The notes under the pieces are model-generated. The model had not been told where the DNA came from and ran no database searches. It was given only the letters and a program-made list of their open reading frames with translations. The translations under genes and the position numbers were made by a program. Positions 7,746 through 64,000 of a stretch of DNA of 64,000 nt are shown one piece after another. The stretch covers positions 79,534 to 143,533 of the forward strand of contig JBLMZI010000005.1 of the NCBI GenBank assembly GCA_050258755.1, in the 5' to 3' direction. The first letter of the stretch is position 1, and every line of letters begins with the position of its first letter. The DNA comes from Solirubrobacterales bacterium. GTDB taxonomy: Bacteria > Bacillota > Syntrophomonadia > Syntrophomonadales > DTU052.

Positions 7746-7784
7746 CAAAAAAAGCCTTCCGATCTGTCGGAAGGCTTTTTTTGT
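7746..7784 (-). terminator. Terminator downstream of rnpB (bidirectional shape)
   Basis: AAAAAAAGCCTTCCGA...TCGGAAGGCTTTTTTT, a perfect stem flanked by A and T runs. Confidence 0.8.
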
Positions 7785-8120
7785 GCGAGTAAATCTATAA
7801 GCGGAGTTCTGTATTCGATAGTCATCTATCTGGGATGACAGTTGCCTGTCACCTCGAGCGACGCACCCGGAAGCGGAGCGGGCCACTCCACTGCTTCCCT
7901 ATTTGGTCTTGCTCCAGGTGGGGTTTACCGAGCCGGCCAGTCGCCTGACCGCTGGTGAGCTCTTACCTCACCTTTCCACCCTTACCGACAAAAGCCGGCG
8001 GTTTCTTTCTGTGGCACTATCCTTGGGGTTGCCCCCACTGGGCGTTACCCAGCACCCTGCCCTGTGGAGCTCCGACTTTCCTCAAGCTTTTTACAGCCTG
8101 CGACTATCCAATTTACTCGC
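7785..8120 (-). ncRNA. rnpB: RNase P RNA, bacterial type A
   Basis: The reverse strand reads GAGGAAAGTCGGAGCTCCACAGGGCAGGGTGCTGGGTAACGCC...GTGCCACAGAAA...GGTAAGAGCTCACC...ACAGAACTCCGCTTATAG. P1 pairs GCGAGTAAAT with ATTTACTCGC. The + strand ORF 7903..8136 is its antisense artefact. Confidence 0.9.
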
Positions 8121-25280: not shown

Positions 25281-25356
25281 GGAGCTGTGGTGTAGTGGTT
25301 AACATGCCGGCCTGTCAAGCCGGAGACCGCGGGTTCAAGTCCCGTCAGCTCCGCCA
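25281..25356 (+). tRNA. tRNA-Asp (GTC)
   Basis: Cloverleaf read by eye: acceptor GGAGCTG/CAGCTCC, anticodon loop CTGTCAA, T-loop GGGTTCAAGTCCC, encoded CCA. Confidence 0.9.
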
Positions 25357-25360
25357 TCAC

Positions 25361-25436
<76 letters not shown>

Positions 25437-25441
25437 TAGTT

Positions 25442-25516
25442 GCGGAAGTGGCTCAGTGGTAGAGCATCGCCTTGCCAAGGCGAGGGTCGCGAGTTCGAAT
25501 CTCGTCTTCCGCTCCA
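25442..25516 (+). tRNA. tRNA-Gly (GCC)
   Basis: GCGGAAGTGGCTCAGTGGTAGAGC..., anticodon loop TTGCCAA, encoded CCA. Confidence 0.9.
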
Positions 25517-25527
25517 GAAGTAAACGG

Positions 25528-25550
25528 GCCGCCCGATTCGGGCGGCTTTT
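25528..25550 (+). terminator. Terminator after tRNA-Gly
   Basis: GCCGCCC GATTC GGGCGGC followed by TTTT. Confidence 0.7.
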
Positions 25551-25673
25551 CCAATCTCCAGGCCGTTCCAGTTGCTTTCGCCGAGCATAGGGCGGGAAAA
25601 GCTGACCGGTTACGGACCAGCGCGTTTTGGAAGGCACCGATTCATAGCCAAGTAAAAATGCCGTCGAATTGGC

Positions 25674-25704
25674 ATTGACGGGATTTTGGGAAATAAGCTA
25701 TAAT
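25674..25704 (+). promoter_or_regulatory. Promoter of the tRNA Cys-Leu operon
   Basis: TTGACG-19 nt-TATAAT. The spacer is slightly long. The -10 box lies about 18 nt before tRNA-Cys. Confidence 0.5.
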
Positions 25705-25722
25705 AGCTATGCTTGTGCTCGA

Positions 25723-25797
25723 GGGCGGATGGCGAAGTGGCAACGCTGCGGTCTGCAAAACCGCCATTCACCGGTTCAAATCCGGTTCCGCCCTCCA
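25723..25797 (+). tRNA. tRNA-Cys (GCA)
   Basis: Acceptor GGGCGGA/TCCGCCC, anticodon loop CTGCAAA, encoded CCA. Confidence 0.85.
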
Positions 25798-25809
25798 TTT
25801 TCCTTTCTT

Positions 25810-25898
25810 GCCGGAGTGGCGGAACAGGCAGACGCAACGGACTTAAAATCCGTCGATGGGTGACCATCGTACCGGTTCGACCCCGGTCTCCGGCACCA
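25810..25898 (+). tRNA. tRNA-Leu (TAA), class II with long variable arm; integration target
   Basis: GCCGGAGTGGCGGAACAGGCAGACGC..., anticodon loop CTTAAAA, variable arm CGATGGGTGACCATCGT, encoded CCA. Its 3' 64 nt are part of the attL repeat. Confidence 0.9.
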
Positions 25899-34686: not shown

Positions 34687-34923
34687 TGGGAAAAATCGTT
34701 GGCGGGTATCGAGATATAAAGACTGACGCGATTGTGCGCCAATGGTGCTAACGCAGGGCTGCGCCGGCATTCCGAACCGGTCTGCGAGTCGAACGCATTT
34801 CTAGTAAAACGGGGATAAAGACGATACAATAGAATCCAGGTAAATTATTCCTGTTCGATGAAATCGCTGCCGGGGACGGCTGATGGAGCGCGAACGGAAT
34901 TCATGGAACGAGGAGGGAACGGT

Positions 34924-36903
34924 ATGCCTGAACATGACAACAGCATTCTGCTAAACAAGGCTTCTTCACAGTATTCCAACACGGCGCGGGCAGATTATTC
35001 CGTTCCTGCGGATCACGAATCCCCGGATGTTGGGCGAGTGAAGCTCGCGGCTCAATTACCGGCGAGCGCAGCGCCGCGGGATGTATTGGCACTGCAGTCA
35101 GTGATCGGGAACCGGGCCGCGTCGCAGGTCGTTCACAATAAAACCAAGGCGCCTTTCGTGAGACCCCCGCTGAAACGTTCGGAGCAGCATGTTACTAAGG
35201 CAGATCTGGATCAGCCGGCCGTCCGTACGAAGCAGCCTGCCTCCAGTTCGAGCTCGAGTGCGTCCGATAACGTGCTTTCGGCCAACGAAAGCCCGAAAGC
35301 ACAGCCTATCGATACGAACCAGCCGGCTGCCAATCCGAGCACATCGTCCAGTTCTAATGCGAATACGGCGTCTGGGTTTCGGAGACCGGCGATTCAGCAC
35401 TTCCGCTTTTCATCGAAGCAAACGGCGCAGGGCCAGCCAACGGTTAACCCGAGCACATCGTCCAGTTCTAATACGACCGCGCCCACCGCGCAGCGCTCCG
35501 CGCCGAATGCGAGCGAAAACGGCTCGGCCACTGAAAAGGAGACGCCGATCGTCTCCCTGTGGAAGCAAATGAGCGGCAGAGAAATGAACCAGGCGCGGGT
35601 GGAACGGGAAAAACAAGAGGCTTCAAATCTGGAGAAGATCACGGATACCCATCAGAAAAAGACGAAGAGCGAACTGGAGTCGCTGGCACCCAGCAAGGAC
35701 AAAGCGCAAAAACCATCGGATTATGTAGCCGCGAAGCAAGGCACGGATGCGGGTGACATTTCCGCCACGGCAGATGATCCTCGGCTTGGGTATCAGTTTA
35801 ACCGATCATCGGACACCGGGAACTGGCTTTCCCGCAAGGTGAAGCGAGGCTGGGAGTTAACCAAAGAGGGCGGCGCCGATTTGTGGAGCAAGATGCCTTT
35901 AACCCACTCTGTGCTGCCTGGGGAAGACTATGCGACGCAGAAGCAGTCGCTGGGGGAGCGGGCCTGGGAGAGTACCAAAGCAACGGCTTCCGGCGCCCTT
36001 AGCAAAGGCGTCAGGTCGATTCCGCTGATTGGCAGCGGCGTGAAGGGCTATGATGCCTACAAAGCAAGCAAAAAAGAGGATGCGGCAAAACAAGTGGCGG
36101 AAAACGCCTCCAAAGCAAACGCGGACCCGAAGCATCCTTCGCTGCTGGAATCCATGGCGAAGGGGATGGAATCCGGGTATCACAAAGAAAAGTACAATAA
36201 GGGCGTTAATGCGGCGACCAGCTTGGTCGGAGACGCTTTGTCCGCATTAACGCTCGGCGGCAGCACCGCGGTAACCGGACCGCTCAGCAGCGCGTTGTCA
36301 AGCGTGGTGGATGTAGGGGCCTCGACCGTCAATTCAGGGTTGACCAACAGTGCCGACCTGACGACCAGTCTGGTTTCAAAGGCGATGGGTCCCAGCGCGC
36401 AGGAATCCAGGAAGCTGGTTGCCAGCAGCCATGACCAAAACGTCAGATCTGAGGCGGTGAAACAAGTGGTGAAGACCGATCCGAATGCCGCCAAAGCCAT
36501 GCTGAAACACTTGAAAAAAGGTCAGATGTCACACGATGAGGAGCTGTACACGAACACCCGTATTCAGCAGCCGAAGGGTGAGCATACAATGAAGCCCAGC
36601 CAGGTCAAGCAATTGGGCGATCAGGAAAAAGCCCGGCTTCGGCTTCGTGAAAACATGGGGGTCGATCCGCTGGATAACGCCGGCACGAAGGCGGAGAACA
36701 CCCCGCAGGTCAATCAGCAGGCAAAGCCGAAGCCAATCCTTGTTCGGCAGAAGAACGCGAAGAACCTGTTGAAGAACGACACCGGGGTCCCCGAAGCCCC
36801 GGATCTGCCGGAAATGGGTCCAAAGGAATTGCTGAAGACAAAAGTGAAACCACCCACGAAGAACAGCGGCCTCAATAAACTGATTTTGAACGATGAGTCG
36901 TAG
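34924..36903 (+). CDS. Large low-complexity hypothetical protein (Ser/Pro/Ala/Lys rich)
   Basis: GAGGAGGG lies 6 nt before ATG 34924 (ORF opens at 34858). N-terminal LALQSVIGNRAASQVV motif, Ser-rich internal repeats, and a Gly/Ala/Ser-rich amphipathic C-terminal half. Confidence 0.65.
   Translation: MPEHDNSILLNKASSQYSNTARADYSVPADHESPDVGRVKLAAQLPASAAPRDVLALQSVIGNRAASQVVHNKTKAPFVRPPLKRSEQHVTKADLDQPAVRTKQPASSSSSSASDNVLSANESPKAQPIDTNQPAANPSTSSSSNANTASGFRRPAIQHFRFSSKQTAQGQPTVNPSTSSSSNTTAPTAQRSAPNASENGSATEKETPIVSLWKQMSGREMNQARVEREKQEASNLEKITDTHQKKTKSELESLAPSKDKAQKPSDYVAAKQGTDAGDISATADDPRLGYQFNRSSDTGNWLSRKVKRGWELTKEGGADLWSKMPLTHSVLPGEDYATQKQSLGERAWESTKATASGALSKGVRSIPLIGSGVKGYDAYKASKKEDAAKQVAENASKANADPKHPSLLESMAKGMESGYHKEKYNKGVNAATSLVGDALSALTLGGSTAVTGPLSSALSSVVDVGASTVNSGLTNSADLTTSLVSKAMGPSAQESRKLVASSHDQNVRSEAVKQVVKTDPNAAKAMLKHLKKGQMSHDEELYTNTRIQQPKGEHTMKPSQVKQLGDQEKARLRLRENMGVDPLDNAGTKAENTPQVNQQAKPKPILVRQKNAKNLLKNDTGVPEAPDLPEMGPKELLKTKVKPPTKNSGLNKLILNDES
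35335..35472 (+). repeat. In-frame direct repeat within the low-complexity gene
   Basis: A 24-nt perfect repeat CCGAGCACATCGTCCAGTTCTAAT at 35335..35358 and 35449..35472 (114 nt apart) encodes PSTSSSSN twice. Confidence 0.85.
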
Positions 36904-47079: not shown

Positions 47080-49848
47080 ATGCAGTTTTTCAAACGCAGT
47101 CTGACAACCCGTTTGGTCGTGTCATTCTTGCTCCTTTCAGCGTTCACGGTGAGCGCGGCTGGGGGCATTGCCTATGCGCTTGCGCTCAAAGCGCTGAAGA
47201 ACAATATTTACGCCCGCCTGGAAGAAGCCTCCCAGCACAAGGTAGATGGCATCACGCAGTGGATCGGCGAGCAGCGGTCTCAGGTGGTTTTTATTTCCAG
47301 GATGGACGCGGTGAATGATCAAGCGCGGGTTTTAAACCGCGCTGCACCCGGCAGCGCCGAATACCGAAAGGCCGAACAGGGGCTGCGCAACCTCTTTGCG
47401 GCCGCAAACAGCAGCAACCCTTCTTTTTCCGAGGTCTTTTTACTTTCCGACATTGGGGGCAAAGTCCTTCTGTCCTCCAACCCAACCAATGAGGGGACAT
47501 ACCGGATCAACGACACGTATTATGTCATGGGACGGAAACGCACCTATGTCCAGCCGATCTATCCCTCACCGGTCACCCTGCAGCCGACTATGACCATCGC
47601 AACCCCATTAAGTGATGCCATGACCACCCCACAGAGTGAAGCCCGAGGGCAAATCCGGGGTGTTATCGCGGTACACCTGAATCTGCGGATCATGGACAAT
47701 CTGGTCTGGAGTCACTCCGGACTGGGCAATACCGGACGCGCATATCTGGTCGAAAGGAGTAATATCCTGCTGGACTTCGCCCCGACCGTATCGAACGCCT
47801 ACCGCCGGGGCGTGCATTCTCCGGCGATTGATGCCGCTACCCGGGGACAAAGCGGAAAAGGCGTTTACGTGAACCACCTGCAGCGGGAAGTCATCGGAAG
47901 TTACCGGTGGATTGAGGAAGCGGGCGTCGCACTCATCACGGAAATGGATACCGGCGAAGCACTCGGGCCGGCCCGGGATCTGGCGTGGGCCATCCTGTTA
48001 GCCGGGCTGTTTCTGGTTGGCCTGATGGCGGTCGGATTCATGATGATGTCCCGCCGAATTGCCGGACCGATTCTGGCTATCAAAGAAAGCGCGCTCCAGG
48101 TGGCGGCCGGAAACTGGGATGCCCAGGCGCCGGTTGTGTCCGAAGACGAGGTTGGCACCCTGGCCCGGGCTTTTAATCAGATGGTTCTCCAACTGAATCG
48201 ATACCAGGAGATCCTCAGCGCCAGTGAAGCTTATTTTCGGGCACTGATTGAAAACGGTTATGATATTACGCTGGTGATTAACTTGAACGGGAAGACGCAG
48301 TACTGCAGCCCGGCTGTGAAACGGGTGCTTGGTTATGACCCCGAGGAAATGCTGGAACGCTCGCCGCTGGAACTGGTTCACCCGGAGGATCGCGAACGAT
48401 TGGTGCACTCAATGACCCATCCGACGGAAGGAAACCGTTTTATTGAGTTCCGCATGCAGCATGCGGACGGGAGCTGGCGGGCGCTGGAAGGGGCCGGAAA
48501 CGCATTTGAGGCGGGCGGTGTGGTCGGATATGTGATTAACTCACGCGACATCACCATTCGAAAGCAGGCTTTATCGGCGTTGGCTGTTTCGGAAGAGAAG
48601 TTTTCCAAGGCGTTTCATTACGCGGCCGATATTGTCTGCGTGGTGCGCATGGAAGACCAGCATATTATTGAGGTCAGCGACGCTTTCTTTAATCTTCTGG
48701 GCTATCAGCCGGAAGAGGTGCTGAACCACTCGTCGGAAGAATTCCATCTCTGGGTCGACCCGGAACAGCGGCAGGCGATTTACGAGCAGCTTGGCCGCTA
48801 TGAGGCCATTCGGAATGTGGAAGCCCTGTGGCGGACGAAGAGCGGCATGGTACTCACCGGGGTGGTTTCCGCCGAACTCGTCGATATTGGGGACGAGCCG
48901 TGCCAGATCATTGCCTGGCATGATATCACGGAACAGAAGCAGGCTCAAGATGCCCTGCAGCAGGCCAACGATGAACTGGAAATGAAGGTTCAGCTCAGGA
49001 CCGAGGATCTGCTGGCGATGAATCAGGAGCTTCAGGCCATGAATGAAGAACTGATGAATACCCTGGAAACGCTCCGCAACACCCAGATGCAGCTGGTTCA
49101 ATCCGAGAAAATGGCAGCCCTTGGGAACTTAGTGGCCGGGGTTGCGCATGAAATCAACACCCCGGTTGGGATTGCCGTTACCGCGATCACCAACCTGGAA
49201 AAGCTGTCCGGTACGTTTCAGGACCGATACTCCACCAAAAACGCCACCCGGCAGGAATTGGAAAGCTTCCTGCGAGACTGCGAAACAGCGGTGTCCATTA
49301 TCAAGCCGAACCTGGAACGGTCTTCCCGGCTAATCCAGAGTTTCAAGCAGGTGTCAGTCGACCAATCCAATGAAACCAAGCGGGTTTTCAGGATGCGGGA
49401 ATATCTGGACGAAATCCTGACCAGCCTGCATCCGCTGCTTCGGAAAACGAGAATTTCGGTCAAGGTGGAGTCGGATGAGATCACCATTGATTCGTATCCG
49501 GGCGATTACGCGCAGATTATCACCAATCTGATCACCAATTCGCTGACCCATGCTTTTGATCTGGGGGCGGAAGGCATGATCAATATTGAGGTGCGGCAGT
49601 ATGGTCAGCGCATCCGGATCATCTATGCCGACAATGGCAGGGGAATGGTGCCGGAGGTGATGAACCGCATTTTTGAGCCGTTCTTCACCACCCGGCGCGG
49701 AACCGGCGGCACCGGCCTTGGCATGCACATCGTGTACAATCTGGTTACCCTGCGTCTGGGCGGATCCATTGACTGTGAAAGCCTGCCGGGGCAGGGAGCC
49801 AAGTTTATCATTTGGCTGCCGATTGAAGAGGAATTGGTTTCCGTTTAA
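47080..49848 (+). CDS. Membrane sensor histidine kinase (extracytoplasmic Cache-like domain, HAMP, two PAS, kinase core)
   Basis: Two TMs flank a ~270-aa loop. HAMP (EDEVGTLARAFNQM), PAS regions, H-box AGVAHEINTPVG, ATPase GGTGLGMHIV. Confidence 0.85.
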   Translation: MQFFKRSLTTRLVVSFLLLSAFTVSAAGGIAYALALKALKNNIYARLEEASQHKVDGITQWIGEQRSQVVFISRMDAVNDQARVLNRAAPGSAEYRKAEQGLRNLFAAANSSNPSFSEVFLLSDIGGKVLLSSNPTNEGTYRINDTYYVMGRKRTYVQPIYPSPVTLQPTMTIATPLSDAMTTPQSEARGQIRGVIAVHLNLRIMDNLVWSHSGLGNTGRAYLVERSNILLDFAPTVSNAYRRGVHSPAIDAATRGQSGKGVYVNHLQREVIGSYRWIEEAGVALITEMDTGEALGPARDLAWAILLAGLFLVGLMAVGFMMMSRRIAGPILAIKESALQVAAGNWDAQAPVVSEDEVGTLARAFNQMVLQLNRYQEILSASEAYFRALIENGYDITLVINLNGKTQYCSPAVKRVLGYDPEEMLERSPLELVHPEDRERLVHSMTHPTEGNRFIEFRMQHADGSWRALEGAGNAFEAGGVVGYVINSRDITIRKQALSALAVSEEKFSKAFHYAADIVCVVRMEDQHIIEVSDAFFNLLGYQPEEVLNHSSEEFHLWVDPEQRQAIYEQLGRYEAIRNVEALWRTKSGMVLTGVVSAELVDIGDEPCQIIAWHDITEQKQAQDALQQANDELEMKVQLRTEDLLAMNQELQAMNEELMNTLETLRNTQMQLVQSEKMAALGNLVAGVAHEINTPVGIAVTAITNLEKLSGTFQDRYSTKNATRQELESFLRDCETAVSIIKPNLERSSRLIQSFKQVSVDQSNETKRVFRMREYLDEILTSLHPLLRKTRISVKVESDEITIDSYPGDYAQIITNLITNSLTHAFDLGAEGMINIEVRQYGQRIRIIYADNGRGMVPEVMNRIFEPFFTTRRGTGGTGLGMHIVYNLVTLRLGGSIDCESLPGQGAKFIIWLPIEEELVSV

Positions 49849-55248: not shown

Positions 55249-57936
55249 CTAATGGCGGGAGACTTTTTTTGAATGTCTGCTTTTTGCCGACTTACCGGAT
55301 TCCTTTACGTGATCGACGCCCGCTCGTGACCGGAGTGGATTAAAATCCATCCATTTCCACCAGCCAAGCTGAAGAACCACAAAAACAGCCAACCAGACCC
55401 ATTCCCAGACAATCGCGCGGCCAAAGACGTTTGGAAGATGTTCATTCAAATCGCTTAATACCGCGTAAAAACCGCCAAAAGCCAGAAGCGGAAAGACTAC
55501 GGCTGATACTGTATCCATGGTTTTGGCAAAACTGGCCTGGTTGAACTCGTCAAAGGCGGTGATCTGTTCTGACACCTCTTCGTAGATGATCTGGTTTTCA
55601 AAAATATCCTGCCATCGGCGGAAGAGTTCCATCCCGTTTTCATCGTTCGTAATCTGGCTGAACCAGCTTCTGATAGTGAATTCCAGGAAGGACTCGCGAA
55701 GCACGCTGACCATGGCCCCAGCTGATTTGTTATCCTTGCTGTGCACGGACAGCTCTGACGCCATGCCCAGAAGAATGTGCCGCTGATGCAGGGCCAGCAG
55801 GGCGATGATAAAGCCTAAATCCCAGTAAACGCTTCCAGTTAACGTTTGTTGCGCGAATCGCGCATTGTCCCTTGCTGATACCAGGCCCGCGCCGTTTTTA
55901 CTGATGCAGTATGTGATCAGGGGATTTTCTTTAAAGAGCATCTTGCCCGCGAGATCGTCATTGGCCCCAATCGGCAGCTTTTCATGCCAGTCTTTATGGG
56001 ACGCCAGTTTTAAAGCGACTTCGTGGACCCGCTTCTGGTGCAGGCTGTTTGGAACCATGTTGATGGCGCTGTAAATAAAGTGATCCAGGCTGGTCATCGA
56101 GACGATCTGGCTTTTGCCAGCCGCCTCCTGGATCAGCCGAACAAAGACTTCTTTCATGTCCCGAATTCTGCGGTTGAAAGCACTCAGCTGCTCGATCGTG
56201 ATCCAGTTTGCAGGATCGCTGTTTGAGAACGGTGCGGTCTGAACAAATGGCAAATCGGAGCGGTACCCATTGCCGAGTTCGACTTCGATGACAAAGAATC
56301 CGACACCGTATCGAAACAATCCGATATATGCGTCTTTGATCCGCGCTCTGAGGCTTCCCAAGAGGGCGTGCTGCCCGTCAATTATCTGAGAACGCATTTC
56401 GTTGATAACTTGCAAAAAGGAATCTTCCGGATCGGAACCAAGCCTGAAAAAGGCGCAATGATCGGCCTTCTCATCAAATAAATAGGTTTGTATATACGAG
56501 AGAAAGAAATTGTCATGATCGTTTAACAGATATTTCGTGTAATTGAGAGCATTGACGAAGTGTTTCTCGAGAGAAGGATAATCCAAGGAGTCAAACGAAA
56601 ACGGGATCACATGCCGCGAGCTGTTGAAATCCAGCACGGGAACGTGAAAACGCTTGCTGATTTCCATGATTTCAGCAATAGGCAGCAGGCTGTAATGGTT
56701 TCCTGGCGCGTCAACGATCGTATAATTCTGGTTCCGGCCGTCGTACCAGGGATCCACATTTGTGCACCACGCATCTTTCGGCCAGCGTGCCTGGGCACGC
56801 GAGCGCCATCGCCCAATGTCAAAGTTACCTTGATCAATGAGCCGTTGTTCCGCTGCCAGTTCTGCGGCTTCCAGCGCTTCGCCGAGGCCAAGGAGGGACG
56901 TTTGGGCGCCTTCTTTCAAGGCAATGACGACGCGGTTCGTTTTCACTTCGTTGCCATTCGGGAGGGTTTGGGGTTTGGTGCCGGGCATAGGAATAAAGGT
57001 GAATTCGAAGCCCCTTCCGGAAGGGCTGCTTTTATCCGACCGGGCCCAATGCTTGTGTAACGAACAGGTCGGCGGTTCGGTGAAGAAGAGCGCGTCCGCT
57101 TCCTCCATCATAACCCCGTTTTCTGTGATTCGGGGCAGACTGACCGTGCGGTCCGGCGCGCTGCGCCGGGCCAAATCATCAGTATAGCGGCTGAAGTCGT
57201 CAGCCAGAAAAGTCATTTCAGCTTCGAAACCAGACAGAGCAACCAATTCGTTGTCATGCAGAACGGTGATATCGTTCGGCAGTTTGTCGTTGTTCTGCTG
57301 ATATCGGCGCTGCTTTTCCACAAATCCGGTTTCCATCGCCTTTATCAGGGCAAGTCCGCGATTCAGGATCAGATGATCAGCCGTATGCCGGTCCGGCGGC
57401 GCGCCGTTCGGATTGGCGTAAATCGTTTCGGCGATCACGCTGGCTATCGCATAAGGGGTCTTTAACTGCGCTCCGTCGAGAATGATCGAACCGGAATCGA
57501 TTCGATCGGCATAGTCGGCAAGGTGTCTGAAGAACGCATTGCGTACTGCGGGTTCCGGCCGCTGCTCAGCGGCGATTTCAGCATCGCTGACCGCGCACAG
57601 CAGATCCCGAAGGATATAGATCGATGCAAAACAGTCAAAATCCGGGAAGGTATGGCAGATGATCGTGAAAACGACCGCTTCACCGCTGCCGGCAGCATCC
57701 AGCGAGACATTGGCCTTTACTTTGTCTGGATGGACCAGAATCATGCCGGCTGTACTTTCGAAATGATGCGGGTCCCCCGATCTGGACGACTTGTGGTGCT
57801 GATCCAGGACACCGTACTCGTCACTGTTGCCGACATCGATGTAGTACCGGTTGCGGGCAGGTTCAAACGGCAGACCCGGCCGAACTGTGGTTCCCTGGGG
57901 GACAAACTGAAACTCAAACCGGGCTGTACGCGCCAT
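55249..57936 (-). CDS. Large hypothetical protein: DHH/MYG1-like N-terminal motifs, long middle region, CorA-like C-terminal two-TM hairpin
   Basis: GGAGGCGG RBS 6 nt before ATG 57936 (ORF opens at 58020). N-terminal motifs YYIDVGNSDEYGVLDQHH, STAGMILVH and ICHTFPDFDCFASIYILRDLL. C-terminal VVFPLLAFGGFYAVLSDLNEHLPNV...IVWEWVWLAVFVVLQLGWWKW parallels the CorA IFxPLTFIxGxYGMNFxxMPEL layout but has no GMN. Confidence 0.7.
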   Translation of the reverse strand: MARTARFEFQFVPQGTTVRPGLPFEPARNRYYIDVGNSDEYGVLDQHHKSSRSGDPHHFESTAGMILVHPDKVKANVSLDAAGSGEAVVFTIICHTFPDFDCFASIYILRDLLCAVSDAEIAAEQRPEPAVRNAFFRHLADYADRIDSGSIILDGAQLKTPYAIASVIAETIYANPNGAPPDRHTADHLILNRGLALIKAMETGFVEKQRRYQQNNDKLPNDITVLHDNELVALSGFEAEMTFLADDFSRYTDDLARRSAPDRTVSLPRITENGVMMEEADALFFTEPPTCSLHKHWARSDKSSPSGRGFEFTFIPMPGTKPQTLPNGNEVKTNRVVIALKEGAQTSLLGLGEALEAAELAAEQRLIDQGNFDIGRWRSRAQARWPKDAWCTNVDPWYDGRNQNYTIVDAPGNHYSLLPIAEIMEISKRFHVPVLDFNSSRHVIPFSFDSLDYPSLEKHFVNALNYTKYLLNDHDNFFLSYIQTYLFDEKADHCAFFRLGSDPEDSFLQVINEMRSQIIDGQHALLGSLRARIKDAYIGLFRYGVGFFVIEVELGNGYRSDLPFVQTAPFSNSDPANWITIEQLSAFNRRIRDMKEVFVRLIQEAAGKSQIVSMTSLDHFIYSAINMVPNSLHQKRVHEVALKLASHKDWHEKLPIGANDDLAGKMLFKENPLITYCISKNGAGLVSARDNARFAQQTLTGSVYWDLGFIIALLALHQRHILLGMASELSVHSKDNKSAGAMVSVLRESFLEFTIRSWFSQITNDENGMELFRRWQDIFENQIIYEEVSEQITAFDEFNQASFAKTMDTVSAVVFPLLAFGGFYAVLSDLNEHLPNVFGRAIVWEWVWLAVFVVLQLGWWKWMDFNPLRSRAGVDHVKESGKSAKSRHSKKVSRH

Positions 57937-58238
57937 TGATGTCCGCCTCCAAGCTAACGTGATTACGAATCCATACAAAGACGGTGCTAGCGGGGAAGCC
58001 GATGCTTCGCCGTAACCCATAAAGTATTTCGGCTATTAAGAGCATTTTCCTGCTCCCTGGATGAATTGACCTTGGGGGAGAATTCGACGAATGCTTTGCG
58101 GGATTCCGACACAAAAGCCGCTAATCTATCAAAAAAGGAGATAATTTGACCCATATGGCAGGAACTCGTTGGTGCAAGTGGAATATCACTCTTGGGTAAT
58201 CTCAAGGGATATTTCGATGGACCAACAGGAGGCGTTCT

Positions 58239-61200
58239 ATGTTCACGAACAATAATGGCTTAAAGGAATTTGATCTGATCTCCAAAGAACGCAGAAACAA
58301 CGAGGATCAGGACTACATCAATCTGCCTGAGGTGGTTTACGCAAAATCCCTTGAAGCCTATAACAGATATGAGAAAACCGGTGAACTGCCAGAGTACAAC
58401 TGGAACAGCACCTTCCTGAAACAGATCGGCAGGACCTACGGCGAAAAGCTGGTTGATTTCAAACTGCTGAGTTTTGTTGAGTTTACGCTGTACAAAGATA
58501 CGTATAAATCACAGAACTTTGTTGTGTTGAAAGACAATGAAACCAACCGGGTCTTTGATGCCGAAGGACAATTCATCTTACCGCGCTACCAATATGATTT
58601 TCCCGTCGACAAGGAGCATTCGAAGAAACTTTTAAATATTCTGCTCGATTACTTATATCAGACGCGATTCAAGCTGGAAAGCCATACACATTTTATTGAT
58701 ACCGGGGAACAGGTCGGGCACAGCAGTTATCAAGACGTGGATTCCTATACCAAGGCATTGCTGAAAAACTTCATGCAGGACTACGCGTTAAATAACAACG
58801 CCTATGGATTTGCCGGCTACCCAGCCATTCACTTTGCCGTTACCAGGGACGTTGTCATCATGATCGCCTTTAAGCCGATGAATAGTTTCTTTGTGGATGA
58901 CAGTATCGACGAACTCGAGAATATTTTTGATATCAGCATTGGTTTTTTTGCGAATACCCGCAAGATCTATAACTTTGAATATAAGAACCTGCTGAATCAA
59001 TACCGAGCCTATTCAATGTTTATCTACAAAAACGAGTTGGAGAGAAGTATCCGCGACTCCATTGGCGAGGCATCGTTGATTTCAAGATATTGGTACACTG
59101 AGGGTTTGCAGAAGGTAACGGAAAAGCAGGAGAAAACCAATCACGCCACCGACTCGTTTGATTTCTCGCAGATTTTCGTGAACGAGATTCTGAACGCACA
59201 GATTGACGGGGTGGAGAACATTGAGATATACCCGTTTGACCGGTGTTTCATTTTCAAAGATTCGGCGCTGATCAAGGCCGATCAAAACGATGAGGAAGAT
59301 GTGAAGCTGGTTACCTGCGAAACCTTGTTGATGAAGAAGAGTATTTCGGAGATCGAGAGCATCAAGCAGCGCAATAATTACGTGTATGAGTGGGACCGGC
59401 TGTTGTACGACATCAAGGACTATGACATTGATTACAGCAAAAAAAATGTCGAGTTCAGCGACTGGAGAATCGAATACAAAGATCGGCTTCAGTTCGAACA
59501 CAATTTAACCGAATCGTATTCCGGGCTTAAAGACGATCCGGCGAAAGCCATCGATTTCATGCTTTACAATCTGATCTGTAAAAAGGCCAGCACCAAACAG
59601 CTGCTCGAACTGGAAAAGGAATGTTTCAGCAATGATGACGGCTTGTGTTACATCTACCTCAAAAACGTGGATTTGAACACCATGCAGATGTTGACCGCTC
59701 TGCAGGAAAAATATTTGCGGGAAATTTACAAAGATGTGAAGCAGATGGAGGAGTTTCTCAGCCAGGTCGACACGAAAAACGCCAAAGTCGTTTTTGTTTC
59801 ATATGACCCGAGCAGGGTTAAGTCGGAAAACAATATTAAGATCGAGCAGAAACACGCATTCAGTATTTTGATTGTGGTCGACGCGGACATTCAAAAGAGT
59901 GTAATGGAAATTCAGTCCGAAAAAGAAGATTTAAAAACCGCGGTGAAACTGATTGTCCGGCAAAAAACCGAAGCCGCCGAGCTGGTCAAAATGGAACGTG
60001 AGAAGCAGAAAAGCTTCATTTTAAACCAACTCAAATCGACTTTGCACAGTATCAAGGGCAGAGTGCACGACATGAAGGCAAAACAGGAATTGGATCAGAT
60101 GCTGCGCGATTTCAGCCAAAAGCTGAAGGAAGATACCCTTGAACTGAAAACGACCTTGGTCAATCAAAGCACCCCGCAAGAGCGTTTTAAATGCCTGTTC
60201 CGCGAGATTACCGGCGACATGTTCGAAAGGTCGGGCGGCAGGTTGTGGGATAAAATCGTGCAGGAAATTGCGAACTCGAATGATCCCGCCTTTTTCAATA
60301 CCCGAAGAAGCCTCGAGTGCACAGACCCTTTGGAGTCGGTCGGCATCATTGTCTATGAGAGTTTCCTGCCGGAGTTTAGTATTCTGATGGATAAGATCAC
60401 ACTTCAGGAAGCCTTTCATGTCGTCCTGAAAAACACCGTGGAAGAGGCGAAATCGACCGACGACAAATTCGTGGCCATCCAGTTCAATGTTGGGTATGGC
60501 GACAAGGACCGGGGGGTTCTAAGCATCCAGCTCATCAATTCCTGTCATCCGATTACCGAAGAAAGGCTGCAGGAGATGAATACGGCGGTCGAAGAAGTCT
60601 CAATCAACGAAAACAAAGAGGGTTCAACCGGCTTTGGCGTGGCTTCGTCCCGAGCCCAGCTCACCAGCCGTTTCGGAGCAGAGGCCTCGATCAAGTACCG
60701 CCTGCTGACCAAAAACCAGATTAGCACAACCTTGACGATGCCCATTGTCTTCCTACAGAATGACACGATTTTCGGGGACGGGCGGGTTGCCCACGAGGTA
60801 AAAGAAAGCTGCAAAGTCGTTTACCTTGAAGATGAGAAAACATACTATCAGGAATCCTGCGCGTATTTGGACGGGATGATCAAAGGGCATTACCGCCATA
60901 CCACCACGGCGAACCTGTTTGAGGAATACTGGAAAAAGGCCGATATTCTCTTTACCGATATTAGCGTGCCCAACAAGGAAGGGGGTAAGGCGTCTCCAAC
61001 GTTCGGACTCAGCGCAATCAACAACTTCTTCCGATTGGGTCAGGGCAAAACCATTTTCGTGCTGTCCAACAGCGAGTCCCAGGGGATTAAAGAGGATATC
61101 CTCACGCGGAGCGGCTTAACCAGCGGCAGTATTACGGAGCAGGATATCCTGCTTGATCTAAATGAGATTAAAAAAGGGAAAATCTACGTCGCGGATAATG

Positions 61201-61985
61201 TGAAATCGATTAAGACCCTGATGGAGAACCATCCGGCGGTGATCGATTTTCTCAAGCAGCATTTTGGGATTGACGACGACGGTGAGGCGGAGCCAGTGCC
61301 GGATGACAGCGGCCAAGCGGAGGCGTATACTATCGAGTCAGCCGAAAGCTTTGAACAAATCCTGGAAACCATCTCGATGGACACGCTGGCAAGTCGGTAT
61401 GTTCTGCGAGATGTAACGAATGATCAGCTGCCGGAAGTCTTTCGAAGGTGGACCACTAAAATGATTTACCTTCCGGATATTGAGGACCAGGAGTGCCTTT
61501 CGAATCCGGATTTGGTGGATACGCTGCTGTTTATCCAATTGAGTGACTGCTCGGCGTTTAATGTCATGGACTCCACGCTGTTCGGTTTGAAAAACAACGT
61601 CGTTTTCGTACCGTCTGCCTACTCCAATACCCAGCAAGCCTGCCTTGAGATTGCCCGGCAGTATCAGGAGCGCATCAGTCTGACCAGCAGTGGGATTTTG
61701 TCAGCCCTGAACCATGATTTGGCGAAGTATGAAGATCCGGCCGTCAAAATGATTCGGGAAAAAATCATCAGCAGCAAAGCCTACACTGTCGCAAAGACCT
61801 ATAAAATCGATTCGCTGATATTGGCCGAACCGAAAGCCGATTTAGACGAACTGCGTTATATCCAGGACATTAAGCAGGAATTAGAGATCTATGCCCGGGA
61901 AACGAAAGACCAAATCCTGCTGAAACATGTTGAGAACCTAACCTTCTGCCTGACGCTTTGCCAGGCCATGGCTGGAGGTGAGTAA
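58239..61985 (+). CDS. Giant soluble histidine-kinase-like / receiver hybrid protein with unknown N- and C-terminal domains
   Basis: ACAGGAGG RBS. 1248 aa, no TM. Coiled-coil then LKSTLHSIKGRVH (His603, nt 60045). N-box-like HVVLKNTVEEA. G2-like EGSTGFGVASS. Receiver VVYLEDE...ADILFTDISVP (Asp907, nt 60957)...FVLSNS...VADNVKS. A ~240-aa C-terminal region includes ILSALNHDLAKY. Confidence 0.75.
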   Translation: MFTNNNGLKEFDLISKERRNNEDQDYINLPEVVYAKSLEAYNRYEKTGELPEYNWNSTFLKQIGRTYGEKLVDFKLLSFVEFTLYKDTYKSQNFVVLKDNETNRVFDAEGQFILPRYQYDFPVDKEHSKKLLNILLDYLYQTRFKLESHTHFIDTGEQVGHSSYQDVDSYTKALLKNFMQDYALNNNAYGFAGYPAIHFAVTRDVVIMIAFKPMNSFFVDDSIDELENIFDISIGFFANTRKIYNFEYKNLLNQYRAYSMFIYKNELERSIRDSIGEASLISRYWYTEGLQKVTEKQEKTNHATDSFDFSQIFVNEILNAQIDGVENIEIYPFDRCFIFKDSALIKADQNDEEDVKLVTCETLLMKKSISEIESIKQRNNYVYEWDRLLYDIKDYDIDYSKKNVEFSDWRIEYKDRLQFEHNLTESYSGLKDDPAKAIDFMLYNLICKKASTKQLLELEKECFSNDDGLCYIYLKNVDLNTMQMLTALQEKYLREIYKDVKQMEEFLSQVDTKNAKVVFVSYDPSRVKSENNIKIEQKHAFSILIVVDADIQKSVMEIQSEKEDLKTAVKLIVRQKTEAAELVKMEREKQKSFILNQLKSTLHSIKGRVHDMKAKQELDQMLRDFSQKLKEDTLELKTTLVNQSTPQERFKCLFREITGDMFERSGGRLWDKIVQEIANSNDPAFFNTRRSLECTDPLESVGIIVYESFLPEFSILMDKITLQEAFHVVLKNTVEEAKSTDDKFVAIQFNVGYGDKDRGVLSIQLINSCHPITEERLQEMNTAVEEVSINENKEGSTGFGVASSRAQLTSRFGAEASIKYRLLTKNQISTTLTMPIVFLQNDTIFGDGRVAHEVKESCKVVYLEDEKTYYQESCAYLDGMIKGHYRHTTTANLFEEYWKKADILFTDISVPNKEGGKASPTFGLSAINNFFRLGQGKTIFVLSNSESQGIKEDILTRSGLTSGSITEQDILLDLNEIKKGKIYVADNVKSIKTLMENHPAVIDFLKQHFGIDDDGEAEPVPDDSGQAEAYTIESAESFEQILETISMDTLASRYVLRDVTNDQLPEVFRRWTTKMIYLPDIEDQECLSNPDLVDTLLFIQLSDCSAFNVMDSTLFGLKNNVVFVPSAYSNTQQACLEIARQYQERISLTSSGILSALNHDLAKYEDPAVKMIREKIISSKAYTVAKTYKIDSLILAEPKADLDELRYIQDIKQELEIYARETKDQILLKHVENLTFCLTLCQAMAGGE

Positions 61986-61986
61986 G

Positions 61987-64000
61987 ATGCAGCGATCGTC
62001 ATATAAGAAAGCGGAAATCGTCTGGATCGATGACGTCTTCGGCCTTGAGGAAATGACCCGCCGCCTGGATTCCGGCATCAATTTCTGGGAAGAGATGTTC
62101 GGCGCTCCGGAAAAAATCTACCGCCTGATGAACATAAAAATCAAACTGATCACCAATTACAGCGATGCGATCAGCTACATCAACTCCTTGTCCCAAAATC
62201 GTTCAACGTATTACTATTTCATCGTCGACTTGACCCTCCCTAAAAACCTCGATGATTTACGAAAGAAGGAAGCCTATCCGTCCTACGGCAAAAAGATTGG
62301 CAAAAAACTTGTGGACAAGGGTTTCGCGTTTTCATTTCTGACCAGCGCCAGCGAATTGGGATCACTCCGGGCTGAAGAAAAGGATCTGTTACTGGCCGAT
62401 TTTCACATCAAGGAATACCACAAAAGCCTATCCCTGCCGGATTCTCTGAAAAACAAATTATTGTTCCACCTGCAGTCACATATCAACTGGATCAACATCA
62501 AAGAGAATTTTTTCACCAAAATCAGTGAATCGTCTAACATCAGCAATAACCAGGAAGAGGCTTTTGAGTACTTCCCGTATCTCGACGCATACAAGGATTT
62601 TGTTAATATTGCCGAATTCAACGAGTTGGACTTGAGCCATCCGATCTTTATCAAGAGCCATCTCTTCAACAACAAATACTATGAGCAGCAGTGCGTGCTT
62701 CTGCTGTTGTCCGAAACGTTCCATGTCAACCGGTACCGGAAACTGGACGTGCATTATATCGACTTATCGTTAAGCGATCCCGGTGAAAGCGATATCCGGA
62801 TGAACGAGTTCTATGCCCAATTCAAGGACAAAATTGACAAAGACGTCATCTGGATCATCAAGCTGGCCTTGCTCGACAAGAAACACTTCAAGCAGCTGCA
62901 GGAAACGCTGAGAAACCAGAAATGCATTTTCATCGTGAACGACGAAGAATATGAAAGCTATCTTGAACAGGTGAACTCCAGCTACGGACTGTCCGAGCTG
63001 CCGTACTTCAAAGACGATGACTACATCCAGAAAAAGAACCTGCTGGACCACATTCTTAACCTAAAAATCGAGGAAAAACTGGCCGACCGTGAGATTGAGG
63101 TCGCGTCCATTTACCAGGAGCACCCGGAACTGCTGATGGATGTTCAGGCTTATATCGCCTTAATCAATCCCGCATTCGGGATTCAGGAGCTGTCAGACTC
63201 GTATGAAATGGTCGAGTGGGTGGTCAAGCTGTTTAATCGGCTCGAGAAAGAGATCGTGGTCAACATGGTCCACAACCGGCCGATTTCCTATGACAAACTG
63301 ATCGGGAAAGAAATCCTGGAAAATTTGCAGAAGGCGCATTTGCAGCGGATAAAGGAAGAAAGCGCGGCTTACTGGCTGAAGACGTCCTGGGGTTTTCCGC
63401 ATGGGGTCTCGATTGATAAATACGGGCTTTCAACCGAGGCGAATGATGCGTGGGAAATGAACTCGCTGCGGATTTTATCCCATCTGCTGACTGATCTGGA
63501 CGGTACCCGGAATGAGACCCTGCGCAACCTGAAAGAGATTTTCCGCCATGAATACATTCGGACGATTGTCGATGAAAAGGACCGCCGGAAAGTCTCCAAA
63601 GAGGTCGACACCATGATCAAATGGCCGCACCGTGAATACCCGATGCCGTCGATCCTGCATAAGAAGTTTGAAGAAGACAATAAACACCTGTGGTTTAACC
63701 ATACCAAGCTGAACTATGTGAGCTACTCCCGGAAACTATCGCTGTATTTCCGTCAGCTCGACCTTTACCTGGACTATTACGACATTGTCCTGGAGTTCAT
63801 CCACAATACCTACCAGATGCTCCCCAGGATTTCACATCGGTTTATTGAAATGGCGCTTGGCGACATCACTGAGAAGAAGTTCTCCGCGAAAGACAGTGAG
63901 TTCAAGGAGGAGTTCAAGAAATACCTGTACGGCATGCTGAGTATCTCTCTGATTTTTACCGAAATAATCGAGAAAAACGAAATATCGGATATCGAGTTTT
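61987..64000 (+). CDS. Receiver-domain protein with large unknown output region (partial, continues beyond the window)
   Basis: Not in the ORF track because it has no stop. I translated it by hand: 671 codons with no stop. ATG lies 1 nt after the upstream TAA. N-terminus EIVWIDDV...YYYFIVDLTLP (Asp81, nt 62227)...FSFLTSAS...FHIKEY is a complete receiver signature. The rest has no recognised motifs. Confidence 0.7.
   Translation, partial: MQRSSYKKAEIVWIDDVFGLEEMTRRLDSGINFWEEMFGAPEKIYRLMNIKIKLITNYSDAISYINSLSQNRSTYYYFIVDLTLPKNLDDLRKKEAYPSYGKKIGKKLVDKGFAFSFLTSASELGSLRAEEKDLLLADFHIKEYHKSLSLPDSLKNKLLFHLQSHINWINIKENFFTKISESSNISNNQEEAFEYFPYLDAYKDFVNIAEFNELDLSHPIFIKSHLFNNKYYEQQCVLLLLSETFHVNRYRKLDVHYIDLSLSDPGESDIRMNEFYAQFKDKIDKDVIWIIKLALLDKKHFKQLQETLRNQKCIFIVNDEEYESYLEQVNSSYGLSELPYFKDDDYIQKKNLLDHILNLKIEEKLADREIEVASIYQEHPELLMDVQAYIALINPAFGIQELSDSYEMVEWVVKLFNRLEKEIVVNMVHNRPISYDKLIGKEILENLQKAHLQRIKEESAAYWLKTSWGFPHGVSIDKYGLSTEANDAWEMNSLRILSHLLTDLDGTRNETLRNLKEIFRHEYIRTIVDEKDRRKVSKEVDTMIKWPHREYPMPSILHKKFEEDNKHLWFNHTKLNYVSYSRKLSLYFRQLDLYLDYYDIVLEFIHNTYQMLPRISHRFIEMALGDITEKKFSAKDSEFKEEFKKYLYGMLSISLIFTEIIEKNEISDIEF

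Follow-up and report, generated by a model that had tools for sequence, protein, structure and literature searches.

A CRISPR-type CorA-like protein with an N-terminal DHH-like module, a candidate membrane effector encoded outside visible CRISPR loci

Results

A two-module protein of 895 amino acids

The stretch of DNA analysed here (64,000 nucleotides of contig JBLMZI010000005.1 from assembly GCA_050258755.1, referred to as the window) carries on its minus strand a complete gene for a protein of 895 amino acids, in which an unannotated N-terminal module (N-module) is fused to a C-terminal CorA-like module of the type found with CRISPR systems (C-module). We consider it probable (about 0.6) that this gene is a stand-alone, non-CRISPR member of the CRISPR-type CorA effector family, which has an N-terminal DHH-like module and acts as a ligand-gated membrane effector. 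The features of the protein are compiled in Table 1.

The stop-to-stop open reading frame (ORF) extends from 55249 to 58020, and its first ATG would give a protein of 923 amino acids. The start at 57936 (MARTARFEF) is backed by the N-termini of all homologues, which show an equivalent methionine followed by F-x-Y-x-F-x-P-x-G-T. The NCBI model for this gene (P0001, "MAG: hypothetical protein ACM3QZ_07065") likewise comprises 895 amino acids and is 100% identical to the window protein. An earlier interpretation that was made without database searches (the sequence-only reading) had therefore chosen the right start, and all strings quoted in it were found in the reading frame at the places given. 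Pfam, NCBIfam and PDB sequence searches with the whole protein returned nothing useful, a scan of the locus for promoters and terminators stayed at chance level, and a tblastn search against plasmids gave no match.

The C-module is related to CRISPR-type CorA proteins

The PADLOC models for CorA-like proteins, an ancillary family of CRISPR systems, matched residues 676–848 of the window protein with E=1.9e-17 (PDLC01043) and E=4.9e-13. PDLC01043 was also matched by nine of nine full-length relatives (best E=4.3e-22), whereas Pfam CorA (PF01544) had no match in the window protein. As a reference for CRISPR CorA-1, six clade sequences were transcribed from Supplementary Figure 10 of Chi et al. 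(PMC10600005), the source text of which contains character recognition errors. Alignment of 66 C-modules with these six sequences by hhalign gave a probability of 98.6% (E=9.8e-16) over 166 columns, covering only the stalk and the first transmembrane helix (TM1). With a profile of the C-module (residues 436–895), all seven top matches in the PDB were CorA of Thermotoga maritima, at a sub-threshold E of approximately 0.3; the alignment comprises exactly TM1, the loop and TM2 (FfPl..Ygl...lP versus FMPLTFIAGIYGMNFEYMP). In this alignment A825-V826-L827 sit on the columns of the GMN motif, and the periplasmic loop is three residues longer than in T. maritima CorA. The respective segment, AVVFPLLAFGGFYAVLSDLNEHLPNV (residues 812–837), is followed by the Trp-rich IVWEWVWLAVFVVLQLGWWKWM and a tail rich in Lys, Arg and His. 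Hydropathy peaks at residues 816–822 and 845–851 confirmed a hairpin of two transmembrane helices.

The AlphaFold2 (AF2) model of the C-module, with a mean predicted local distance difference test score (pLDDT) of 71 and a predicted template modelling score (pTM) of 0.69, comprises an alpha/beta domain followed by long stalk helices, with two helices at the end (781–832 and 843–865). Its 12 best Foldseek matches in the PDB were all CorA, CmaX or ZntB (240–330 columns, E from 3e-3 to 5e-2). The Foldseek probability was 0.84–0.99 for 11 of the 12 and 0.54 for the twelfth (8tmb_A), and the TM-scores were low (0.15–0.29). The CorA-type TM1-loop-TM2 with AVL and a short insertion in place of GMN, which the sequence-only reading had described, was thus recovered, and PADLOC, hhalign and Foldseek all pointed to CorA. 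The Pfam searches that it had proposed agreed in part: the CorA model did not match, and the DHH model matched for motif I only. By sequence comparison, the C-terminal 460 amino acids are a genuine homologue of CRISPR-type CorA.

Among the C-modules, P816 is conserved to 90%, Q718 to 91% and R747 to 86%. The family shows no fixed sequence at the GMN position: GMN is found in five of 78 modules, GxN in 11 of 78, and AVL in the window protein only (1/78), in contrast to the CorA-1 proteins of Supplementary Figure 10 in PMC10600005, eight of 11 of which retain GMN. Searching a word-indexed protein database with the C-module profile yielded only three proteins.

Since its top Foldseek matches are CorA, CmaX and ZntB, the protein could also be regarded as a housekeeping divalent-cation channel with an added regulatory domain. 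With these metal ion transport channels (T. maritima CorA; 3jcf, 2iub, 8tmb) it has in common the alpha/beta domain, the stalk helix, the TM1-loop-TM2 arrangement and FxPL ahead of the pore loop; it differs from them in the missing GMN and Pfam CorA match, in the loop with three additional residues and in the extra N-module of 435 amino acids. A housekeeping function appears extremely improbable, because the GMN position is unconstrained in the whole family, because the CRISPR-type CorA models match where PF01544 is silent, and because relatives are located inside cas operons and the occurrence of the family is rare and patchy.

The N-module carries conserved DHH-like motifs

The boundary of the N-module was set by a stand-alone gene at another locus (L003), which encodes 403 amino acids that align to residues 7–434 of the window protein (31% identity, E=2e-41). 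Conservation was calculated per column over 208 modules, 50 of which had been retrieved with the DPWYDG/TIVD motif, which inflates the values for that motif. The N-terminal Asp/His motifs, which the sequence-only reading had picked out, are among the best-conserved columns, with 91–100% at the seven positions of DHH-type ligands: D34 93%, D45 97%, H47 96%, H95 93%, D99 91%, D101 100% and D147 92%. Further conserved residues are G36 (99%), G149 (96%), W297 (92%) and R299 (94%). In the signature at residues 395–411 the values, partly inflated, are 93–100% for D395 to G400, 93% for T406, 91% for D409 and 99% for P411. The near-invariant set of Asp and His residues of the metal-ligand type suggests catalysis rather than mere binding.

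The N-module has in common with the DHH phosphoesterases (NrnA, RecJ, GdpP, PggH; PF01368, PF02272) the motif I H-x-x-P-D-x-D-x-x-x-S. Positions 1–30 of Pfam DHH (PF01368) aligned on this block in six of nine members, with 13.7–28.4 bits (gathering score 28.1). We take the conserved Asp of DVG, the DHH, the H-x3-D-x-D and the Asp of DSG to be equivalent to DHH motifs II, III, I and IV, respectively. The order in the N-module is then II-III-I-IV, with DVG and DHH ahead of HxxPDxD, and not the canonical I-II-III-IV. In addition to this order, the N-module differs from the DHH phosphoesterases in the absence of DHHA1 and GGGH and in a second-subdomain signature of its own. A true permutation was also tried: moving residues 85–127 ahead of residues 1–84 changed the DHH score by −1.9 to +1.4 bits relative to a control of equal length in native order. 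The matched control identified the apparent gain of the re-ordered N-module as an effect of sequence length, and it was rejected as evidence.

The sequence-only reading had, moreover, likened this region to MYG1/UPF0160. By eye we presume a likeness between DVGxxx...DHH...S(S/T)AG, which includes STAGMILVH at residues 61–69, and DVGG...DHHQ...SSAG of MYG1, with motifs II and III close together. This kinship was not borne out, as PF03690 matched none of the nine members and none of the re-ordered constructs at E<=10. In MYG1, the HxDE helix precedes the DVGG/DHHQ motifs; the N-module differs in that HxxPDxD comes after the DHH-like motif and not before it.

The AF2 model of the N-module reached a pLDDT of 81 and a pTM of 0.81, with low pLDDT for the signature in the DPWYDG region. 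For the second subdomain (HKHWAR-D, DPWYDGR, YTIVDAP) no known counterpart was found. In BFVD, Foldseek listed one viral protein of 346 amino acids (A0A8F8SLI1; probability 0.91, E=1e-2, 282 columns, TM 0.24–0.29).

The N-module is widespread and joined to different output domains

A profile search through all 1.84 billion representatives (clusters at 50% identity) identified 1,060 N-module proteins at E<=1e-3, 314 of them at E<=1e-30. Among the best 158, the fusion to a CorA-like module is the commonest architecture (67 proteins); 21 are stand-alone and the rest carry other domains. The partners in 64 members without a CorA-like module include Pkinase (21), TIR_2 (17), Guanylate_cyc (5), HD-CE (4), TCAD9 (4) and AAA_16/NACHT (3), and they are joined either N- or C-terminally of the N-module. 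One protein (P0005, L010:1176-4100) contains a TIR domain (TIR_2, E=1e-16) in place of the TM hairpin, with the N-module and both the cytoplasmic part and the stalk of the CorA-like half retained; this domain layout suggests that the cytoplasmic scaffold can also serve an output outside the membrane. Seven proteins (P0010-P0016) had been taken as carriers of the CorA-like half, which was discarded when their sequences showed that the N-module is the part in common.

With a DNA motif pattern that had been checked against the window and 13 loci, a scan of JGI metagenomes yielded 80 loci. With the same pattern the signature motif of the N-module was found in none of 2.9 million viral contigs of IMG/VR, and a protein-pattern scan of GTDB with very narrow patterns gave no match. 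At six of the JGI loci a stand-alone N-module of approximately 308 amino acids is encoded directly beside, and on the same strand as, a protein of 482–510 amino acids. These neighbours are homologues of the C-module (hhalign 96.5%, E=8.8e-10, 338 columns) and end in a hydrophobic hairpin of two helices. At L003 the stand-alone N-module lies beside a full-length member. The occurrence as fused or adjacent genes suggests that the N- and C-modules are functionally coupled.

Several further arrangements were observed at these loci. At L003:1123-6929 the full-length member (P0008) has an AAA-Lon protease upstream and the stand-alone N-module paralogue downstream. Giant P-loop proteins of the STAND type repeatedly adjoin N-module genes (L001:438-9948; L053, L056, L066, L073; L078, L096), across three architectures of the N-module (fused, split and kinase-fused). 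Some of them have approximately 1600 amino acids with apparent C-terminal WD40-like repeats (by eye), and the 967-aa protein of L096 is homologous to the 1549-aa NACHT protein of L001 (E=1e-12). A GTDB locus (L014) contains a frameshifted gene for a kinase joined to the N-module.

The variety of partners raises the alternative that the N-module is a ligand sensor comparable to the CARF or SAVED domains of type III CRISPR and CBASS, possibly with self-limiting hydrolysis, and that the CorA-like part is only a membrane output that is replaced elsewhere by TIR, kinase, cyclase or HD outputs. This is in agreement with the 64 non-CorA members, with the exchange of the hairpin for TIR in P0005 and with the stand-alone N-modules. 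A further example is found at L054:2016-10087, where a 787-aa N-module protein is encoded beside an RT-Cas1 fusion and an array of 28 repeats (35-nt repeat GTGCAGTGAGCGTCCGCACCGGACGCAATTGAGAC); its C-terminal approximately 320 amino acids showed no match to the C-module profile. Like CARF and SAVED, the N-module is one module joined to many effectors (TIR, HD, membrane, kinase) inside and outside CRISPR, a likeness in the logic of distribution only that implies no kinship in sequence or fold; unlike them, it has an enzyme-like set of metal ligands. This set points to catalysis, the cytoplasmic domain of CorA-1 itself binds SAM-AMP (S-adenosyl methionine-AMP; PMC10600005), and the pairs of split N-module and CorA-like genes mirror the enzyme-plus-effector layout of NrN and CorA. 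We regard the sensor reading as the main alternative, credible but improbable.

Relatives are encoded in type III cas operons

On a 10,976 bp contig (L046), a CRISPR array with 37-nt repeats (three copies at the contig edge), cas6, a 900-aa fusion of N- and C-module, cmr3, cmr5, cmr4, cas10c and cmr6 are located on one strand; the cas genes were assigned by PADLOC with E from 1e-36 to 2e-141. The window protein aligns with this fusion from end to end (28% identity, E=7e-104). A second type III locus, L070, contains a partial cmr3, the fusion, LeoBC, LeoA and cas6. The Eleos pair (L070:1-7746; LeoBC E=1e-80, LeoA E=5e-88) lies between the fusion and cas6, an insertion that is not present in the related L046.

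The 64 kb of the window contain no detectable CRISPR array, and tblastn with Cas6, Cmr3-6, Cas10 and RT-Cas1 of L046 and L054 had no match in it, with scans by cas profile models covering part of its ORFs. The contigs of the nine first-found relatives, which are often short, likewise contain no cas genes. The full-length relatives encoded within type III operons, together with the lack of an array and of cas matches in the window, support the proposal of the sequence-only reading that the gene is orphaned from CRISPR. A new finding is that members of the family are encoded in Cas10c operons and, for the most part, away from visible CRISPR loci.

An orphan might also be a decaying relic that lost its CRISPR-cas partner and is no longer functional. 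The missing cas genes and array, the AVL that is unique among 78 C-modules, and a glutamine (Q46) in place of the first His of DHH would be in line with decay. Such a relic is unlikely, because the reading frame of 895 amino acids is intact, both modules keep their other invariant residues, and at least eight other full-length relatives likewise lie outside visible CRISPR loci. In addition, the GMN position varies across the whole family, so that AVL is no sign of decay.

Neighbouring genes and the window

The genes upstream, likewise on the minus strand, are ordinary ones for a Cu_amine_oxidN1/DUF6612 protein, a pectate-lyase-like protein and an amidohydrolase, as well as a dCache-HAMP-PAS histidine kinase (47080–49848). 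On the plus strand, separated by a spacer of 218 bp, a divergent gene (58239–61985) encodes a protein of 1248 amino acids. Its few homologues head an operon for proteins of 1248, approximately 929 and approximately 491 amino acids in Herbivorax sp. ANBcel31 (L015) and on a metagenome contig (L016), neither of which has an N-module or CorA-like gene alongside. The window continues the same operon from 61987 with 57% identity to the 929-aa protein, which is unrelated to the 895-aa protein and runs off the window end. None of the operon proteins matched a Pfam, PADLOC, NCBIfam or PDB entry. The G+C content is 0.44 at 58–60 kb and 0.46–0.50 at 60–64 kb, compared with 0.50–0.57 upstream. The operon at 58239–64000 may represent a further uncharacterised system, located in a small island.

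The divergent arrangement and the lower G+C content from 58 kb on might suggest that the two proteins work together as sensor and effector, and the sequence-only reading had seen a two-component-like module in the neighbour. This pairing is very unlikely. The 1248-aa protein has no match to a histidine kinase, a response regulator receiver or any other family or structure, its homologues belong to a conserved operon without the N-module or a CorA-like gene, and no homologue was present at any of the other family loci found. The neighbour was therefore dismissed as a two-component-like partner and belongs to a separate system.

Elsewhere in the window lie the class A type of bacterial RNase P RNA (7782–8119, minus strand, 317 bits) and five clustered tRNA genes (25281–25895, plus strand), which shows that the window is chromosomal. 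Two 44-nt direct repeats at 35319–35476 (plus strand; 114 nt apart, 84% identity) lie inside an ORF (34858–36903) and are probably a repeated protein segment. The NCBI label Solirubrobacterales seems odd in view of the G+C content of approximately 52%, the Cu_amine_oxidN1 proteins and the nearest homologue of the neighbouring operon, which is in a Clostridia genome.

Table 1. Features of the 895-aa protein and their positions in the window.
Feature	Residues	Position (nt)	Strand	Basis
Complete coding sequence (895 aa and stop), N-module fused to CRISPR-type CorA-like module		55249–57936	minus	ORF list
N-module, autonomous, unannotated; DHH-like Asp/His core and second subdomain	1–435	56632–57936	minus	403-aa stand-alone copy, AF2
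IDVGNSDEYGVLDQHH; motif II-like D34, motif III-like D45-Q46-H47(H48)	33–48	57793–57840	minus	conservation
ICHTFPDFDCFASIYILRDLL; DHH motif I, H95-x-x-P98-D99-x-D101	93–113	57598–57660	minus	Pfam DHH PF01368, conservation
RIDSG; motif IV-like Asp D147 and G149	145–149	57490–57504	minus	conservation
HKHWARSD; conserved block of the second subdomain	294–301	57034–57057	minus	conservation; invariant in alignments A1/A2
DPWYDGRNQNYTIVDAP; signature of the N-module family	395–411	56704–56754	minus	conservation; DNA-pattern match 56710–56754; low model pLDDT
CorA-like cytoplasmic alpha/beta domain (RHVIPFSF ... FRYGVGFFVIEV ...)	436–690	55867–56631	minus	AF2 secondary structure, Foldseek
Stalk helices (LALHQRHILL; LRESFLEFTIRSWFSQITNDENGMELF)	694–805	55522–55857	minus	PADLOC CorA-like, hhalign, conservation
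TM1; FPL (P816) and A825-V826-L827 replacing GMN (nt 55456–55464)	809–828	55453–55512	minus	profile alignment, hydropathy
TM2, Trp-rich	842–863	55348–55413	minus	hydropathy peak 845–851, AF2 helix 843–865
Basic C-terminal tail	864–895	55252–55347	minus	sequence; pLDDT <50

Discussion

CorA of type III systems binds SAM-AMP and requires a degrading enzyme, and the genes nrn and corA are found both split and fused (PMC10600005, PMC12255297); pairs and fusions of NrN and CorA are thus already known. The window family resembles the CRISPR CorA and NrN of type III-B (Bacteroides fragilis; nrn-corA fusion of Aliarcobacter butzleri) in the CorA stalk and TM hairpin, in a larger cytoplasmic domain ahead of the stalk, in a partner module with DHH-type motifs, in the split and fused forms and in relatives located in type III cas operons. 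It differs in that CRISPR-cas is lacking around the window copy, that the sensor region is not alignable with CorA-1, that GMN is rare, and that the CRISPR-embedded relatives belong to Cas10c (III-C-type) operons and not to III-B or III-D. The partner module departs from a canonical DHH/DHHA1 enzyme in the motif order, in the absence of DHHA1 and in the lack of a fold match to GdpP/PggH-type structures, the nearest structural matches reported for NrN (PMC10600005).

By analogy to CorA/NrN of B. fragilis (PMC10600005, PMC12255297) and to CorA of III-D2 systems (PMC13294483), the window protein would oligomerise in the membrane like CorA, and a small nucleotide-type ligand would bind to the cytoplasmic part and open or distort the TM hairpin. 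As AVL replaces GMN, the Mg2+-selectivity motif, we propose that the pore is no longer a selective Mg2+ channel; it might instead be non-selective, so that the protein would depolarise the membrane and arrest growth as an abortive-infection effector. The N-module would hydrolyse the ligand, sense it or do both, a part taken by NrN, DEDD nucleases or SAM-AMP lyases in the case of CRISPR CorA. Oligomeric state, ligand gating, ligand identity, catalysis by the N-module and a defence role of the window copy are what we infer from this comparison. Since the N-module has TIR, kinase, cyclase and HD domains as further fusion partners, it may be a sensor or regulator, beyond a built-in off-switch.

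Several results weigh against the interpretation as a ligand-gated effector with a DHH-like module. The first concern the N-module. The window copy reads DQHH, with Q46 in place of the first DHH histidine that 74% of the members carry. DHHA1 (PF02272) had no match at E<=10 in nine members, and GGGH is not present in the sequence. Foldseek with the N-module model against the PDB gave a best E of 0.12 with a TM-score of approximately 0.1 and listed no DHH or DHHA1 protein, though the library is rich in DHH structures. As Foldseek depends on the order of the sequence, a permuted DHH fold could escape detection. Both AF2 models were built on alignments of 8–9 sequences. With no phosphoesterase fold among the PDB matches, an outcome that the sequence-only reading itself had counted against its proposal, membership in the DHH-family NrN proteins is not established. 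Of its DHH claim, motif I and the DHH-like motif ahead of it stand, and a permuted DHH fold was supported neither by Foldseek nor by the re-ordering. From its sequence, the N-module is thus a module with a DHH-like motif I and a DHH-like constellation of ligands, for which neither DHH/NrN membership nor a permutation is established.

The other points concern the ligand and its source. The cytoplasmic part of CorA-1 that holds the putative SAM-AMP site (R152/R153 and D219/D220) gave no hhalign alignment to the C-modules, so that the identity of the ligand is not transferable; FNRRIRD and LDHF lie near landmarks of the ligand site of B. fragilis CorA by eye only, which is not reliable. No Cas10, CD-NTase or TIR synthase was found in the window or conserved beside the non-CRISPR relatives. 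The Cas10 of L046 (6609–9782, minus strand) fits the III-C model (E=2e-141) and contains no GGDD or GGDE, as judged by a regular expression only; Cas10 of the III-C type is usually regarded as non-signalling (PMC12669027). A signalling-type effector inside this supposedly non-signalling subtype is an unexpected combination. Finally, the TIR, kinase, cyclase and HD fusions fit the role of a sensor at least as well as that of an off-switch.

A broader hypothesis, which we put forward tentatively and hold to be possible but doubtful, is that the N-module is a widespread rearranged DHH-like metallo-phosphoesterase that senses or degrades a nucleotide messenger. It would link type III CRISPR systems (including III-C) and STAND sensors to CorA-like, TIR, Ser/Thr kinase, cyclase and HD outputs, and the orphan would be a self-contained or trans-acting immune effector, its messenger being made elsewhere or by the invader. 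What is new about the module is that it is not a canonical NrN, that it is invisible to Pfam, NCBIfam and PADLOC, and that its family is large and includes fusions to TIR, kinase, cyclase and HD domains.

Among the outputs of type III CRISPR signalling, CorA effectors are understood least. Their need for a degrading enzyme is still described as enigmatic (PMC12255297), and for CorA clades other than III-B the ligands are unresolved (PMC12669027, PMC11229360). The family described here adds a CorA clade with a built-in partner module other than the canonical NrN; some of its members are encoded in Cas10c operons without the cyclase GGDD, and many have no CRISPR system. The fusion is a compact single-gene test bed for the gating of CorA effectors. 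If the N-module indeed serves TIR, kinase, cyclase and HD outputs as a general sensor or degrader, bacterial immune signalling would gain a new node. For the window alone the meaning is more modest: the gene is a plausible orphan defence effector beside another uncharacterised operon of low G+C content.

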